Positions 4,903 through 60,824 of a stretch of DNA of 64,000 nt are shown here, in pieces (positions within the stretch are counted from its first letter, which is position 1; every line of letters starts with the position of its first letter). A program made the position numbers and the translations under genes. Under the pieces are notes generated by a model that saw only the letters and a list, made by a program, of their open reading frames with translations, was not told the origin of the DNA and searched no databases. The stretch covers positions 568 to 64,567 of the forward strand of contig JAQTMG010000001.1 of the NCBI GenBank assembly GCA_028714455.1, written 5' to 3'. This DNA comes from Patescibacteria group bacterium (GTDB lineage: Bacteria > Patescibacteriota > Patescibacteriia > CAIXNZ01).

Positions 4903-4978
4903 TGGAGCGGGGAGCGGGAGTCGAACCCGCAACACCCAGATTGGAAGTCTGATACTCTGCCAATTGAGTTACCCCCGC
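4903..4978 (-). tRNA. tRNA-Gly(TCC)
   Basis: Cloverleaf GCGGGGG...CTTCCAA anticodon loop...GGTTCGACTCC...CCA. Confidence 0.95.
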
Positions 4979-4998
4979 CCTAAAGAACGAATGTTTGT

Positions 4999-5075
4999 TG
5001 GTCGGGCTGGTGGGACTCGAACCCACGATCTCTTGGTCCCAAACCAAGCGCGATAGCCAGCTTCGCTACAGCCCG
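4999..5075 (-). tRNA. tRNA-Pro(TGG)
   Basis: Cloverleaf CGGGCTG...TTTGGGA loop...GGTTCGAGTCC...CAGCCCGACCA. Confidence 0.95.
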
Positions 5076-27207: not shown

Positions 27208-27357
27208 TTACTTGCGAATGGCCAGGAACCGCCAACTGCCAAGCCACTTACTGTCAACATTGTTCCAGTAGAGGTTGAGCTTGCGCTTGCCATCATTGAA
27301 GACCAGGCACGGACAGTTACGATTGCCGTTGTCATTGACCCAGACCGAGCCGAGATT
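27208..27357 (-). repeat. DGR template-repeat-like copy
   Basis: 150-nt ungapped match to the 3' end of 27682-28296; AAY-rich; by hand 33 mismatches, 20 at adenines of this copy. Confidence 0.8.
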
Positions 27358-27681
27358 ATACAGAATACCGCCAAAGCCACTGCCCATTGAGTACTCTCTG
27401 GACTGTATTTTATGCGGGAGCATCCTCCCTTGATATTCTGTACCAAGTATTTTCATTTTTAGAAATACCAAATGTATGCTAAGCCAAGACGTGTCCTGAC
27501 CTATTCTAACGAATTTAGTATTCTAGATTTCAACCGCCCAAAGCCGTGACCGTGGGCTGATTCGTTTACTATCCATAAAAAATTATAGCACAAAAAAAAC
27601 ACCGCGCAGATATTATCCACGCGGTGATATGATTTGCAAGTGTCCAAGTGCCAAGAGCTCAAGGTTCCAAGAATCCAAGAA

Positions 27682-28296
27682 CTACTTGCGGACGGCCAAG
27701 AAACGGCAACAGGCACCCCAATGACCGTCACCACCGAACCAATAGAGGAAGAGCTTGCGCTCGCCATCAGTGAAGTTCAGGTACGGACAGCTACGATTGC
27801 CGAAGGCATCGACCCAGACCGAGCCGAGAGCGACGATCGGAAACTCCCGTTGAACATCCGGGTTGGCCGCTCCAAAGGCGAGCAGGTGTTCAATGCTAGC
27901 CGGCTTAAGACCCAGACCGTCAAGATGCGCCAGCGCTTCTTTGGTCGTAGCGTCTTTGTTGAGATGAACCAGAACCAATTCGGCTTCTTGCTGACCGACG
28001 CCCTGGACAGGAAAGTGCTTGTCGCTGATGTCGTCATTGACCCAGGCATATTTGCCGAGCTTGATCATCTCGGTGAGCGTCTTGCCGTAGTCCACGACCA
28101 CTCTGTAGGTGTCGCTGGCTTTTTGCCGGCCGAACATGATCAGTTCGGCAACCTGCTTGACCAACTTGCTGTCAGTGAGCAGGCGGTGCAGATCGTCGTC
28201 GCCGCCGCCCAATTCCAGGACGGCATTTGTGATCGCTTGCATTATGGACCACATTTTGCCGGCGGCCTTCAAAAACTCGCTTTTCTTTCTTGCCAT
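27682..28296 (-). CDS. putative DGR target protein with C-terminal variable region (27682-27831)
   Basis: AAGGAGG SD before MARKKSEF; C-terminus FPIVALGSVWVD..GNR.CPYL....ERKL.L.W....W...CRFLAVRK resembles CPR DGR targets as I recall them; adjacent A-rich repeat. Confidence 0.8.
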   Translation of the reverse strand: MARKKSEFLKAAGKMWSIMQAITNAVLELGGGDDDLHRLLTDSKLVKQVAELIMFGRQKASDTYRVVVDYGKTLTEMIKLGKYAWVNDDISDKHFPVQGVGQQEAELVLVHLNKDATTKEALAHLDGLGLKPASIEHLLAFGAANPDVQREFPIVALGSVWVDAFGNRSCPYLNFTDGERKLFLYWFGGDGHWGACCRFLAVRK

Positions 28297-28645
28297 TGTC
28301 AAATCCTCCTTTGTCGCGCTTAGCGACTCCAGTGGCTTGCCCCTTGCTTTGACTTTCAAGGCCTAAGGCTTGCCAAGTATGCTTTCATACTATCATACTT
28401 TTATAATTTTGTCAATGATAACGATTCAAAAATTAGCTAATATTAAATAAATAAATTTTTTAGCTATCTTTAGACAATAAATCCAGGCAAAGTTGACTAA
28501 GACCAAAATTTTTGCTAAACTATATTATAATATAGCTCTGGGCTCGGAGCTTTGAGCTTAGAGCTTTTTAAATAAAACATTCTAAAATTGTTCCGAAGGG
28601 ATGCCTTTGGCATAAATTGTAAATTGAGAATTGTAAATTGTTTCA

Positions 28646-28711
28646 GACTCCGTAGTTTCCGCCAGAGGCGGACCACGAATCGAGCTTTGCTCTGGTTCGT
28701 GGCAATGGATA
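28646..28711 (+). pseudogene. 5' tRNA-Arg fragment interrupted by a 45-bp double hairpin
   Basis: GACTCCGTAGTT|insert 28658-28702|CAATGGATA versus intact GTCCTCGTAGTTCAATGGATA. Confidence 0.8.
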
Positions 28712-28728
28712 TCAAAAAATTAACACCT

Positions 28729-28800
28729 GTCCTCGTAGTTCAATGGATAGAACAAGAGCCTTCTAAGCTCTGGATTGGGGTTCGATTCCTCACGGGGACA
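28729..28800 (+). tRNA. tRNA-Arg(TCT)
   Basis: Cloverleaf, AGAGC-CTTCTAA-GCTCT anticodon arm, GGTTCGATTCC. Confidence 0.93.
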
Positions 28801-28805
28801 TCAGT

Positions 28806-28857
28806 GGTTCTCGGCCAAAGGCTGATCCGCCTCTGGCGGAGATTCCTGGCGGGGTCA
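28806..28857 (+). pseudogene. 3' tRNA fragment interrupted in the T loop by a 30-bp double hairpin
   Basis: GGTTC|TCGGCCAAAGGCTGATCCGCCTCTGGCGGA|GATTCCTGGCGGGGTCA. Confidence 0.7.
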
Positions 28858-28906
28858 TAAGGAGATTCGAGTTTCGTGCAAGAGCAAGAGAAATAAAAAT
28901 AAAAAT

Positions 28907-29251
28907 ATGTTTGATTTTGAAAAACTTGAAGTTTATAAAAAAGCCAAAAATATAAATGTTGAAATTTCGGAATTTTTAAAATCTGCAAATGTAGATATTT
29001 TCCTGAATAATCAGTTGAAAAGAGCTTCGTTAAGCATATTATTGAATATTGCGGAAGGTAGCGGTAGATCAACAAAAAGAGATAAAAGAAATTTTTTTGT
29101 CATTGCTCGCGGTTCGGTCTTTGAGTGCACTTCAATTTTTGATCTATTATTCACAGAGAAAGAAATTGAAATTGAAAAATATAATTATTTTTACAATCAG
29201 CTTGAAGAGATTTCAAAAATGCTATACGGTCTAATCAAAACTCATGAATAA
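28907..29251 (+). CDS. four-helix bundle protein (23S rRNA IVS-protein family, Avd-like fold)
   Basis: FDFEKLEVYKK...QLKRASLSILLNIAEGSGR...FFVIARGSVFEC. Confidence 0.92.
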   Translation: MFDFEKLEVYKKAKNINVEISEFLKSANVDIFLNNQLKRASLSILLNIAEGSGRSTKRDKRNFFVIARGSVFECTSIFDLLFTEKEIEIEKYNYFYNQLEEISKMLYGLIKTHE

Positions 29252-29288
29252 ACTCTTGCTCGTATCTCTCGTCTCTTGCTGATATCAT

Positions 29289-29360
29289 GGCGGGTATAGT
29301 TTAACGGTAGAACAGCGGGTTGTGGTCCCGTTGGCCTGGGTTCAACTCCCAGTACTCGCC
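29289..29360 (+). tRNA. tRNA-His(GTG)
   Basis: G-1, GCGGGTA/TACTCGC stem, TTGTGGT anticodon loop. Confidence 0.92.
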
Positions 29361-29444
29361 CTGTACAATTCACCTCTAAGGAAAAAAGAGTCGAATTTCC
29401 GACGGGGATAAAGTTTTGACAATTTAATTCACTTATCAAAAAAC

Positions 29445-43628: not shown

Positions 43629-43835
43629 GAAAAGTCCTCCTTTACTTTGTTGATGTTAATATATTGAAATTAATTCGATAAGTCAAGCTTGACTTTTGTT
43701 ATATTTTAGCTTATTATAATAGTAATCCCGAAAGGGATTTTGTTTTTTGAGAATAGGTATTAGGTAATAGTTATTAGGAAATGGAATAAATTTCTTATCG
43801 CCAATACCTATTGCCAAATACCCAATATCCAGCAC

Positions 43836-43986
43836 ACCGCCTTCGTCCCGAACTATATCTCGCTTTGCTCAATAAGTTCGGGATAAATCTAATGGTTAGC
43901 CATAGTCCGCCGAAGCACGAAGTGCGAAGGCGGAGACACCGCGCTTTTCCGCCAGAGGCGGACCCGCCTACGGCGGGCAATGCGGT
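43836..43986 (+). pseudogene. 5' part of tRNA-Glu split by three hairpin insertions
   Basis: Removing the inserts gives 42/44 identity to the first 44 nt of tRNA-Glu at 44258. Confidence 0.85.
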
Positions 43987-43995
43987 TAAATAAAT

Positions 43996-44250
43996 ATGTA
44001 TTATTTATATATTTTAAAAAGTTTAAAAGACGAAGGATATTATATTGGAATTACAGATAGCACCCTAGATCGACTCAAGGAACATAATCAGGGCAAGGTA
44101 AGATCGACAAAAAGTCGCAGACCATTTATCCTAAAATATTCTGAAAATTATAATACAAAAACTGAAGCAAGAGAAAGAGAGATTCAGCTGAAAAGAAACT
44201 GCAAAATCCGCAAAGAACTTTTACTAAAACTGAAATTTAGTGTTAAATAA
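43996..44250 (+). CDS. small GIY-YIG nuclease
   Basis: YYLYILKS...YYIGIT....RLKEHNQG....T..RRP......E......A..RE..LK. Confidence 0.93.
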   Translation: MYYLYILKSLKDEGYYIGITDSTLDRLKEHNQGKVRSTKSRRPFILKYSENYNTKTEAREREIQLKRNCKIRKELLLKLKFSVK

Positions 44251-44257
44251 ATATCAC

Positions 44258-44329
44258 GCCGCCATCGTCTAATGGTTAGGACACCGCGCTTTCAATGCGG
44301 TAATCGGGGTTCGATTCCCCGTGGCGGTA
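44258..44329 (+). tRNA. tRNA-Glu(TTC)
   Basis: Cloverleaf, CCGCG-CTTTCAA-TGCGG, GGTTCGATTCC. Confidence 0.95.
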
Positions 44330-44578
44330 CTTGTCCACAGTTGTCATTCTTTCAGTTGAATTTTTCCCCCGAAAAATTCTAACATCATTTGCCAGGCAGT
44401 ACTATTAAAAACCCCGCGACTATCTCGCGGGTTTTTTATTCTTGACAAAATTAAAAAATTTTGTTAAAATAATCTATCGTTCATTGATAAAAAAGACTGT
44501 TTAAACAGTTTTAATAAATATAAATAAAAGATTTTGTGATGGGTGCCAAAACGCATTCCTAGCCATAAGGAGGAACTG

Positions 44579-49100: not shown

Positions 49101-49146
49101 GGCCACTTAGCCAAGCAGTAAGGCAAGGATCTGTCTGCCTACGCAA
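49101..49146 (+). pseudogene. 5' tRNA-Cys-like fragment
   Basis: GGCCACTTAGCCAAGCAGTAAGGCAAGGATCTG|TCTGCCTACG|CAA versus intact GGCCTGATAGCCAAGTGGTAAGGCGAGGGTCTGCAA. Confidence 0.7.
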
Positions 49147-49153
49147 TTTCTGC

Positions 49154-49225
49154 GGCCTGATAGCCAAGTGGTAAGGCGAGGGTCTGCAAAACCCTTATTC
49201 GTGGGTTCGATTCCCACTCAGGCCT
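49154..49225 (+). tRNA. tRNA-Cys(GCA)
   Basis: GGCCTGA/TCAGGCC stem, U discriminator, AGGGT-CTGCAAA-ACCCT. Confidence 0.95.
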
Positions 49226-49227
49226 AA

Positions 49228-49274
49228 TTCAATTCCTTGCCCAGCACCTCTTTGGTGCTAGGCCATAGTGGCCT
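49228..49274 (+). pseudogene. 3' tRNA fragment with hairpin insertion
   Basis: TTCAATTCC..[GCCCAGCACCTCTTTGGTGCTAGGC]..AGTGGCC-T; AGTGGCC pairs with GGCCACT at 49101. Confidence 0.65.
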
Positions 49275-49344
49275 CAAGAAAGCCCCGCGGTGCGGGGTTT
49301 TTTGATGGTAAATTAACCAAAAAAGTGATAAAATTAAGAAAAAC

Positions 49345-49989: not shown

Positions 49990-52757
49990 TGCCAAAAGCT
50001 AAACAAAAATTTATTCTCATTGACGGGAACGCCATTGTTCACCGCGCTTTTCACGCTCTGCCGCCTTTTAAAACTAAGGAAGGCGAATTAGTCAACGCGG
50101 TTTATGGTTTCACCACCATATTTTTAAAAGCCCTGCGCGAAATCAAACCGCAATACGCGGCTGTCACTTTTGATAAGGCTAAAAAAACCTTTCGCAACGA
50201 TTTATATCCCGAGTACAAAGCCACCCGAGTTAAGGCACCGCAGGAACTTTATGATCAGATTCCTAAAATAAAAGAACTGCTCAAACTTTTTAACATACCG
50301 ATTTATGAAATCGAGGGGTTTGAGGCTGACGATGTCATCGGCACCATCAGTCATCTCAAGGGCGTTGACCGGCCAGACATTAAAACCGTAATCGTCACCG
50401 GCGACCTGGACACGCTCCAGCTAGTTGATGACAACACCGAAGTTTTCTCGCTCAAGCGCGGCGTTTCAGACACAATTATCTATGACGAAAAAACCGTTTC
50501 CCAAAGATACGAAGGTTTAAAACCCGACCAACTTATTGATTTTAAAGCGCTCAAGGGCGATCCTTCTGACAATATCCCGGGGGTAAAAGGCATCGGCGAC
50601 AAAACTGCCATCACGCTTCTCAACGAATTTAAGACCCTGGAAAATCTTTACAAAAATATCAACAGCCAAAAAATAACGGAATCTGTCAGAAAAAAATTGA
50701 TTGAACACAAAGATGAGTCCTTTTTGAGTAAAAAATTGGCCACCATTGTACTGGATGTGCCCATCAAATTTGAATTGGAAGACGCAAAAATTAAAAGTTA
50801 TGACAAGCAGGCAGTCATGGAACTTTTTAGAAAGTTTGCTTTCACCAGTTTGATCAATAAATTACCTCCCGAACTCGGGCGACCCGAGGCTGTTATGGTG
50901 AGCTTAGTCGAACCATCAGCCGAGGATAAAATCGTAAAGTTCAATTATCGACTAATAAAAACCGAAGTAGAGCTTGATAAACTAATCGCCGATTTAAATA
51001 AACAAAAAATAATCGCTTTTGACACCGAAACAACGGGATTAGATCCTTTTAGTGTTCAGATTCTGGGCGTTAGCTTTTCCTGGAAGGGTGGCGAGGCTTA
51101 TTACGTACCCGTCGCCGAAATTAAGGGCGAAGGCTTGTTTGAAAATATAAAAATCAAAGAAGACTGGCTTAATAAATTAAAGCCTATTTTAGAAAATCAA
51201 AATATTAAAAAAATCGGCTTTAACGTCAAATACGATTCAGAAGTCATGAGTAATTATGGAATCGAGGCCAAACCTCTATCCTTTGACCCCATGGTCGCTG
51301 ATTATTTATTAAGTCCGGGCATCAGGTCGCACGGCATTGATAATCTCTCCTTCACCGAATTCGGCCATCAAAAAATATCTTTTGACCAGCTCACTGGCGA
51401 AGGCAAAAATAAAATTTCCATTACCCAGGTGCCCCTAGAAAAATTATCTTATTATTCTTGTGAAGACGCTGATTTCGCTTTTCGTCTCTACGAAGTTTTA
51501 GAAAGTAAGCTAAAAAAAGAAAAGCTGGCAGAACTGTTTGAAAAAATAGAAATGCCGCTAATTCCGGTTCTGATTGAAATGGAAAAAAACGGCGTCTTGA
51601 TTGATTCTGCCTATCTCAAAAAATTTGACAAAGAATTAAAAGAGAAAATAAATCAGGTCTCCAAAAAAATCCACAAACTGGCTGGCGATAAATTTAACAT
51701 CTCCTCACCCAGTCAGCTGAAAGAAATTCTGTTCACCAAGCTTCAAATCTCAACCCAGGGCATTGGCCGAACCAAGACTGGCTTTTCCACGGCGGCCGGC
51801 GAATTGGAAAAATTAAAAGGCAGGCACGAAATAATTGATTATATCTCCAAATATCGCGAGCTGACTAAACTGCAAACGACTTACGTTGATTCACTGCCGC
51901 AACTGGTCAATAAAAAAACCGGCCGCGTGCACACCAGTTTTAATCAGACAATTACTGCCACGGGCCGTTTATCTTCTTCAAATCCAAATCTGCAAAATAT
52001 TCCCATCAAAACTAAATTGGGCAACAAAGTGCGCCGCGCTTTTATCGCCGAGAAGGGCAATAAGATTCTCTCGGCCGATTATTCGCAAATCGAATTAAGA
52101 ATCGCGGCCTCCATCTCCGAAGATAAAAATATGATTGACGCTTTTAAACGCGGCGATGACATTCACACCATTACCGCGGCCAAGATAAATGACGTAAAGC
52201 CGGAAGAAGTAACCAAAGAAATGCGCAGCCGCGCCAAGGCCGTTAATTTTGGCGTGCTTTATGGTATGGGCTCGAATGGCCTAGCTCAAAGAACGGGCAT
52301 CTCTCGCGAACGCGCCCAGGATTTTATCGCTAAATATTTTCAGGCCTTTCCCAAAATCAGAGAATATGTAAATGAAACAAAAGATTTTGTTTATAAAAAT
52401 GGCTATGTGGAAACTTTATTTGGTCGCAAGCGCTATTTGCCTGATATTCATTCTGGCGTGCCCAATATCGCGGCCACGGCCGAGCGCATGGCCATCAACA
52501 TGCCTATCCAAGGCACGGCCGCTGACTTGCTTAAACTGGCCATGATAGAAATCCACAAAAAACTTGCAGATGTTTCACCCAGATCAAAATTGATTATTCA
52601 AGTTCACGATGAATTGGTCTTTGAAGTGCCTGAAAAAGAAATAAAAAAAGTCGCCGGCTTTGTCAAAGAGACCATGGAAAGCGTCCATAAATTCAAATGT
52701 CCAATTTTAGCAGAAGTGGAGGTTGGAGACAATTGGGGTGAATTGGAAAAAATATAA
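49989..52757 (+). CDS. polA: DNA polymerase I
   Basis: 5'-3' exo (LIDGN, EADDVIG, GDPSDNIPGV), DTETTG, ADYSQIELR, QVHDEL. Confidence 0.98.
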   Translation: MPKAKQKFILIDGNAIVHRAFHALPPFKTKEGELVNAVYGFTTIFLKALREIKPQYAAVTFDKAKKTFRNDLYPEYKATRVKAPQELYDQIPKIKELLKLFNIPIYEIEGFEADDVIGTISHLKGVDRPDIKTVIVTGDLDTLQLVDDNTEVFSLKRGVSDTIIYDEKTVSQRYEGLKPDQLIDFKALKGDPSDNIPGVKGIGDKTAITLLNEFKTLENLYKNINSQKITESVRKKLIEHKDESFLSKKLATIVLDVPIKFELEDAKIKSYDKQAVMELFRKFAFTSLINKLPPELGRPEAVMVSLVEPSAEDKIVKFNYRLIKTEVELDKLIADLNKQKIIAFDTETTGLDPFSVQILGVSFSWKGGEAYYVPVAEIKGEGLFENIKIKEDWLNKLKPILENQNIKKIGFNVKYDSEVMSNYGIEAKPLSFDPMVADYLLSPGIRSHGIDNLSFTEFGHQKISFDQLTGEGKNKISITQVPLEKLSYYSCEDADFAFRLYEVLESKLKKEKLAELFEKIEMPLIPVLIEMEKNGVLIDSAYLKKFDKELKEKINQVSKKIHKLAGDKFNISSPSQLKEILFTKLQISTQGIGRTKTGFSTAAGELEKLKGRHEIIDYISKYRELTKLQTTYVDSLPQLVNKKTGRVHTSFNQTITATGRLSSSNPNLQNIPIKTKLGNKVRRAFIAEKGNKILSADYSQIELRIAASISEDKNMIDAFKRGDDIHTITAAKINDVKPEEVTKEMRSRAKAVNFGVLYGMGSNGLAQRTGISRERAQDFIAKYFQAFPKIREYVNETKDFVYKNGYVETLFGRKRYLPDIHSGVPNIAATAERMAINMPIQGTAADLLKLAMIEIHKKLADVSPRSKLIIQVHDELVFEVPEKEIKKVAGFVKETMESVHKFKCPILAEVEVGDNWGELEKI

Positions 52758-60669: not shown

Positions 60670-60735
60670 GCCCTCGTAGTTTCCGCCAGAGGCGGACCAC
60701 GAATCGAGCTTTGCTCTGGTTCGTGGCAATGGATA
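60670..60735 (+). pseudogene. 5' tRNA-Arg fragment interrupted by the same 45-bp double hairpin as at 28658
   Basis: GCCCTCGTAGTT|insert 60682-60726|CAATGGATA. Confidence 0.8.
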
Positions 60736-60752
60736 TCAAAAAATTAACACCT

Positions 60753-60824
60753 GCCCTCGTAGTTCAATGGATAGAACAAGGGACTCCTAAGCCTTAGATG
60801 GTGGTTCGATTCCTCCCGAGGGCA
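60753..60824 (+). tRNA. tRNA-Arg(CCT)
   Basis: GCCCTCG/CGAGGGC stem, CTCCTAA loop, GGTTCGATTCC. Confidence 0.9.

Follow-up and report, generated by a model that had tools for sequence, protein, structure and literature searches.

At tRNA genes that host integrase-borne islands, attP supplies the end of the tRNA gene and a displaced fragment is left beside the restored gene. Short GC-rich palindromes that produce no target duplication are familiar from REP/REPIN sequences with their RAYT transposase and from the palindromic elements of Rickettsia, and we know of no coupling of either to the replacement of tRNA ends. A third point of comparison is SsnA of Neisseria, described as cutting single-stranded DNA a few nucleotides upstream of its own hairpin and as acting on transforming DNA (PMC11893778). 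SegB of phage T4 is described as a free-standing GIY-YIG homing endonuclease that recognises a T-arm motif (PMC2330249). Introns with an N-terminal duplication in fungal mitochondria are described as bringing a spare piece of the host gene with them on insertion and swapping in a foreign end (PMC7315562), and truncated gene duplicates are also reported from fungal mitochondria, the consulted parts of both reports giving no mechanism applicable here (PMC6506933, PMC4162613). Our literature search, conducted at the level of listings and abstracts, mostly of open-access articles, found no published description of tRNA end replacement, and the process is apparently undescribed.

We analysed a window of 64,000 nt (the whole stretch of contig JAQTMG010000001.1 from position 568 to 64,567) from a Patescibacteria group bacterium. 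The genome holding the window is denoted G000 (16 contigs totalling 893 kb, in which 46 tRNA genes are found), and G001 is a genome of the same genus that served as the reference for the ancestral tRNA-Arg(TCT) allele. At 28646-28857 an intact tRNA-Arg(TCT) gene is flanked by the hairpin-interrupted pieces of another allele, hereafter the shell (Table 1). An earlier note on this DNA, made by reading the sequence, had placed every piece of this nest where we also found it, and it had rightly described two inserts with the same hairpin in opposite orientations and outer 7-mers that pair into a stem differing from that of the inner gene. The conserved 15-nt hairpin stands at 28658-28672 and its reverse complement at 28826-28840, and the outer stem includes one G-U pair. 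With RF00005 the inner gene reaches 64.7 bits against a gathering score of 29; it has a full cloverleaf and is the sole Arg(TCT) gene called in the G000 assembly; Rfam at gathering scores returned nine matches over the whole window, all of them tRNA. The 45-bp insert folds into two stems (z = -4.2), has no target duplication and is missing from G001, and the old 5′ end at 28646-28657 occurs only once in G000.

Table 1. Features of the tRNA-Arg(TCT) locus and of two related loci in the window
Feature	Position	Strand	Remark
Displaced old 5′ end of tRNA-Arg(TCT), positions 1-12, GACTCCGTAGTT	28646-28657	+	Identical to G001 orthologue
45-bp double-hairpin element in D arm (conserved 15-nt hairpin and variable second hairpin)	28658-28702	+	
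D-loop remnant, tRNA positions 13-21, CAATGGATA	28703-28711	+	
17-nt AT-rich spacer	28712-28728	+	Identical copy at tRNA-Arg(CCT) locus
Intact tRNA-Arg(TCT)	28729-28800	+	ARAGORN; Rfam RF00005
Replacement acceptor 5′ strand	28729-28735	+	3 changes relative to old allele
Ancestral core, positions 8-47 (D arm, anticodon arm, variable loop)	28736-28775	+	40/40 identical to G001
Replacement T arm and acceptor 3′ strand, Arg(GCG)-like	28776-28800	+	5 changes relative to old allele
5-nt spacer	28801-28805	+	Similar 5-nt spacers in L008, L210
T-arm remnant GGTTC	28806-28810	+	
30-bp double-hairpin element in T loop, reverse orientation	28811-28840	-	
Displaced old 3′ end of tRNA-Arg(TCT), 17 nt, positions 56-72	28841-28857	+	Identical to G001
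Nuclease-bearing unit at tRNA-Glu(TTC)	43948-44330	+	Layout as at Arg(TCT)
Twin of 5′ module, 79 nt, before tRNA-Arg(CCT)	60675-60753	+	Identical to 28651-28729

There is no nuclease gene at the locus. The XerC/D-like gene found 1.5 kb upstream is not part of the shell, and a four-helix-bundle gene (TIGR02436, PF05635) and tRNA-His lie downstream. The four-helix-bundle gene (28877-29280) has short inverted repeats on both sides; it is present at this site in G001, G006, G007 and G012 and absent in G002, G004 and G008. Just upstream of the shell, short heptamer-like repeats (28613-28645) are kept in G001 and G002, and two tandem minus-strand ORFs (27208-27471 and 27682-28299) have a similar end motif and no Pfam or NCBIfam match. 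A scan for promoters and terminators returned weak consensus matches only.

The locus resembles the target of an integrase island in being a restored gene with a displaced tRNA fragment beside it. Unlike at an island, however, neither integrase, cargo nor island body lies between gene and fragments, only the spacers of 17 and 5 nt; the fragments are interrupted by hairpins and cut off next to them; and units of this kind occupy D, anticodon and T loops alike. The likeness to REP/RAYT lies in repeated short palindromes (20 matches of the conserved hairpin in G000) and in the missing target duplication, but none of the five Y1-family genes in G000 is flanked by the same palindrome (220-nt flanks searched), and RAYT was rejected as mobiliser. 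The units described here thus each time lack a defining feature, whether of islands, REP/RAYT, split tRNAs or introns.

A search of relatives for an intact version of the shell found it at the syntenic site in G001, where tRNA-Arg(TCT) has no inserts, the flanks align on both sides, and the flank downstream of 28857 is in register. The two shell pieces (21 and 22 nt) equal the first 21 and the last 22 nt of this orthologue (21/21 and 22/22), a match which, judged by its sequence, is not chance. Other family members have acceptor stems like that of the shell, which supports the shell as the older allele. The shell has no positions 22-50 and so no anticodon arm at all; joined in silico it gave no ARAGORN call, even at a lowered threshold and with or without the spacers, and the shell ends joined to the inner core were called as a tRNA. 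The suggestion of a Russian-doll locus, a whole tRNA inside another, fails on this missing middle. The earlier note had also proposed that an older tRNA was either split by the arrival of a new copy or inactivated by the inserts and then rescued: the shell is indeed an older, hairpin-interrupted allele at a rescued locus, but as a split tRNA it is incomplete, and the inner gene does not look wholly new, since its 40-nt core is that of the old allele. Most likely, to judge from this identity, the shell is without its middle because the working gene still uses it. G002 has the 5′ shell alone at Arg(TCT), and G008 has both shells together with the resident allele.

The inner gene differs from the G001 allele at eight positions (2, 4, 5, 48, 49, 63, 64 and 70), with no difference from 8 to 47. 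All eight changes fall at the ends of the live gene and none in the dead pieces, which indicates recombination rather than point mutation. Among the loci compared, only two of 32 other Arg(TCT) alleles have the same 40-nt core (G001 and L175). The new T arm was otherwise seen, among 79 Arg alleles, in Arg(GCG) alleles only, and searching metagenomes for the new 3′ end yielded four records (L274-L277) of one sequence with an intact Arg(GCG) gene. This gene matches the inner gene at 24 of 25 nt at the 3′ end, which was the deliberate search query, and at 7 of 7 nt at the 5′ end, where the match is partly forced by pairing; the similarity supports a donor of Arg(GCG) type for the new 3′ end. The 5′ module has an identical twin in the window (Table 1), and G008 has near-identical spacers at two Arg paralogues (L038 and L054). 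The exact 29-nt module pattern had no match in the metagenome contigs searched. Leu(GAG) provides a second case of a retained core, with the T arm swapped.

Units with the same layout but bearing a nuclease gene are also found. At tRNA-Glu(TTC) in the window, the same hairpin as at Arg(TCT) (43948-43977) sits in the dead anticodon loop and is followed by a 9-nt remnant; an 84-aa GIY-YIG gene (43996-44250; PF01541, E = 5.8e-14) begins 18 nt after the hairpin, with the intact tRNA-Glu (44258-44330) downstream of it. The slot of this gene is the one occupied by the 17-nt spacer at Arg(TCT). Small GIY-YIG homologues occur in all 17 genomes of the order (44 matches), and 24 of the 30 loci fetched lie within 250 nt of a tRNA (a raw count, for GIY-YIG loci alone), the closest sharing the layout. 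The hairpin family found at Arg(TCT) is present at seven of the 30; the others have different hairpins in the same layout. GIY-YIG loci at tRNA-Lys have the mirror-image 3′ layout, and in L288 a full and an empty unit stand in tandem. In a nuclease tree of 41 rows, the hairpin label requires five changes (shuffled mean 11.3) and clades follow tRNA isotype, so that a single nuclease clade for this hairpin was rejected; what the nuclease reads may be the tRNA and not the hairpin. The nearest solved relatives of these proteins are UPF0213 proteins, and the nuclease of the window is only distantly related (E = 3e-5) to the one SRM-flanked GIY-YIG of G000, which has a long branch.

Several further arrangements were seen around such genes. 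Ahead of the GIY-YIG gene in the stretch 43830-44330 lies a dead 5′ part of tRNA-Glu into which three different hairpins are inserted. In L032 (G000 contig C1, 154546-154920), the frame of the working tRNA-Lys(CTT) resembles that of tRNA-Lys(TTT) in G001, and the old Lys(CTT) 3′ part lies behind a GIY-YIG gene. In L027 (G000 contig C5, about 50580-50870), a small GIY-YIG gene lies between inverted arms in what appears, by eye, to be 23S rRNA.

The D-loop hairpin pattern was found at the same insertion point in 26 of 401 genomes of the class, as was the T-loop pattern in 10 of these 401; neither reversed-pattern control had a match. A GTDB scan of the hairpin pattern returned at least 118 stretches, including records titled Omnitrophota, Bacteroidota and others, although some stretches among the matches listed are chance matches with no tRNA. 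Phage was rejected as the carrier, none of the nine viral matches of the D-loop pattern having a tRNA in the locus. We parsed 107 distinct D-loop double-hairpin sites into 56 of 5′ type and 6 of 3′ type, the remaining 45 having no tRNA within 200 nt or being unparsed; a GIY-YIG gene lies downstream at no fewer than 7 of the 107, whose loci are short. In sixteen of the 56 the junction bears an arm from a second hairpin family; these are true nests, in which arms enclose the tRNA. The remaining 40 include 35 in which no more than 10 nt are retained after the hairpin, a count to be read with the kinship among sites, the automatic parsing, and a D-loop pattern that itself forces at least 6 nt; 24 of the 40 keep the same acceptor 5′ strand. 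Of the six sites parsed as 3′ type in the D-loop set, one is a T-loop case and the other five retain 5-7 nt ahead of the hairpin. At all 14 T-loop sites of 3′ type 3-8 nt are retained, and 9 of these sites differ from the resident 3′ end. A further 7 T-loop sites have no tRNA just upstream, and 3 of them end 6 nt past the hairpin, with an intact gene following. The similar spacing at different loops indicates a rule that follows the hairpin and not the position in the tRNA. Simple tandem duplication of the unit's own flank was rejected, the spacer being equal to the upstream flank (at least 8 nt) in 3 of the 40 sites and not at Arg(TCT).

In the Ssn system (SsnA/NTS/SRM; Chenal et al. 2025, PMC11893778), a single-domain GIY-YIG protein of <100 aa likewise stands beside a short hairpin repeat, which, like the tRNA hairpin here, has many copies without the gene, and the reported cut distance of SsnA matches the junction spacing at the tRNA units. 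The hairpin sequence differs, however; the main text of that paper makes no mention of tRNA, CPR or Patescibacteria, nor did we find duplication of a gene end described in it, as is seen in the tRNA units. The SegB gene, like that of the tRNA-unit nuclease, lies among tRNA genes and is described as spreading with its neighbours, but SegB belongs to a phage and cuts double-stranded recipient DNA, and the abstract (PMC2330249) mentions no hairpin, displaced tRNA ends or gene-less units. The fungal introns (PMC7315562) are described from protein genes, whereas the units here measure 35-83 bp, lie in bacterial tRNA genes, contain no intron, and come in 5′ and 3′ versions.

We lean, with some reserve, towards a history in which two gene-less, self-rescuing units swapped both ends of one Arg(TCT) gene and kept its ancestral core. 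A unit would consist of a hairpin, a tRNA remnant of 5-9 nt, a spacer and a spare end of a tRNA. Recombination would bring the unit into the resident gene, the hairpin landing in a loop of the old end, and the spare end would complete the tRNA, so that the cell would never be without its single Arg(TCT) gene. We infer two successive events: the 5′ unit probably moved between Arg paralogues through their common D arm, the 3′ unit probably came from a gene of Arg(GCG) type, and both are likely to be gene-less versions of the units with a GIY-YIG gene in the spacer. By analogy with SsnA, the putative nuclease may act when DNA is taken up or replicated, nicking the single strand at a distance of a few bases from the hairpin; such a nick would fix the position of the junction. 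Patescibacteria include naturally competent organisms. A swap of the two ends would explain a shell without a middle, and we count the one-sided state in G002 in favour of two units. Several observations given above weigh against this history: no nuclease gene stands at Arg(TCT), few nuclease loci (7 of 30) have its hairpin family, that family is not bound to one nuclease clade, and the 29-nt module pattern was missing from the metagenome contigs searched.

The principal rival, which comes near the view of the earlier note, is a single event in which a whole foreign tRNA-Arg(TCT) with short flanks was patched in between two hairpins, replacing positions 22-50. It would pass through no mismatched intermediate, whereas with only one end swapped, whichever it is, the second acceptor pair is mismatched (T.T or A.A) and a two-step path would include a weakened tRNA; this counts against two steps. 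Both new ends also fit the frame of one natural Arg gene (L274-L277 match both, so that one donor and one event would suffice), and whole-gene nesting with arms around a cargo tRNA is common in relatives (L177, L188, L190, L197) and occurs in G000. Yet that natural gene is an Arg(GCG) with a different core, the core of the inner gene is identical to the sister-genome allele and rare elsewhere, no arms surround the inner gene and the shell has no middle, and the 5′ module is also found at a paralogue of different anticodon. We regard a single event as unlikely, if still a serious contender.

We find it improbable that a duplication came first, as an integrase scar or by illegitimate recombination, and that a free palindrome later colonised dead stubs still bearing its target. 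Hairpin-free 5′ stubs do exist (tRNA-Cys, 49101-49124); dead copies with two or three hairpins (L175; window 43830-43990) indicate that hairpins can land in fragments already dead; the second arm family explains the junction in the 16 nests above; and 9 of the hairpin matches in G000 lie farther than 350 nt from any tRNA (the other 11 lie within that distance, in about 4% of the genome), a distribution by which the hairpin evidently also spreads alone. Against this order of events, the junction falls about 3-10 nt from the hairpin at D, anticodon and T loops and on either side, and hairpin and spacer move together between paralogues. The two-unit history accommodates both of these regularities.

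It is highly improbable that the outer pieces are functional, whether as a split or spliced tRNA or as an aid to processing through hairpin pairing around the precursor. The fold of the 212-nt region is far stronger than those of shuffled versions (z = -8.5), and a pairing of the two conserved hairpin arms that encloses the tRNA is possible, but the palindromes alone account for the fold, and the shell is absent from G001 and most relatives. A split, trans-spliced or permuted tRNA was rejected on the missing anticodon arm and the lack of a tRNA call, and a group I or other intron on inserts of 30 and 45 nt that matched no intron family.

Contigs from run X1, which may be the source sample of the genome, tile 28400-29400 with overlapping pieces and zero mismatches, none spanning the whole stretch; runs X2 and X3 of the same study tile it partially. 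The depth in X1 was 22.9 over 28651-28729 and 10.6 and 11.8 in the flanks, about twofold, as expected for a two-copy module. An assembly artefact is unlikely, and the mis-assembly of several tRNA-Arg genes from a mixed sample, which a metagenome-derived genome, a two-copy module and the want of one contig across the stretch might suggest, has next to no credibility given this mismatch-free tiling, the synteny of both flanks with G001 and the same architecture in independent genomes.

The Arg(TCT) nest is not an isolated case. We defined debris as a fragment of at least 12 nt of a tRNA with the same anticodon within 260 nt of a tRNA gene; it accompanies 26 of 45 distinct tRNA genes in G000 (shuffled mean 0.06; other-isotype control 1.1), 14 of 44 in G001 and 15 of 41 in G002, and equals the allele of a sister genome at 11, 4 and 6 loci, respectively. 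The survey of all tRNA loci that the earlier note had suggested places the nest within a process that is genome-wide and lineage-wide. Divergence of tRNAs between G000 and G001 was not enriched at debris loci (10 of 19 diverged genes, 13 of 22 conserved genes). The replacement of tRNA ends by selfish mini-elements appears to extend across this lineage.

Other arrangements of tRNA genes and fragments were also observed. The tRNA-Cys(GCA) locus of the window (49101-49275) is a second nest, with a different intact Cys gene inside flanks that correspond to the 5′ 24 nt (the hairpin-free stub above) and the last 13 nt of the G001/G002 allele. Tandem arrays of 2-4 units occur in L082, L120, L135, L156, L009 and L214 and in G000 (contig C3, 44863-45160), as well as in records titled Saccharibacteria, Flavobacteriaceae and Neomarinimicrobiota. 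The same long module is found at several tRNA-Ala genes of different anticodons (L060, L091, L122; one record titled Planctomycetia). Two identical tRNA-Pro(TGG) genes (window 4903-5075; G000 contig C1, 72230-72388) are each followed by a different tRNA-Gly(TCC) allele.

What is new here is the matched ancestral allele, the end-swap, the junction rule, the retained core and the donors. We tentatively suggest, as a possibility of wider reach, a class of mobile element that has neither integrase nor transposase nor intron, in which a tiny GIY-YIG gene and a hairpin invade the loops of essential single-copy tRNA genes, a spare end saves the host, and gene-less units of 35-83 bp are spawned that shuffle acceptor stems and T arms between paralogues and species, the Arg(TCT) locus being then a tRNA from three sources. 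Displaced tRNA fragments are not always att sites of prophages or islands. If the suggestion is true, the small GIY-YIG proteins would be candidate site-specific nucleases of single-stranded DNA or tDNA with a predicted cut position. tRNA genes are usually treated as slow, vertically inherited markers; selfish mini-elements would, on the same condition, drive rapid turnover of tRNA alleles and domain shuffling in these reduced genomes.
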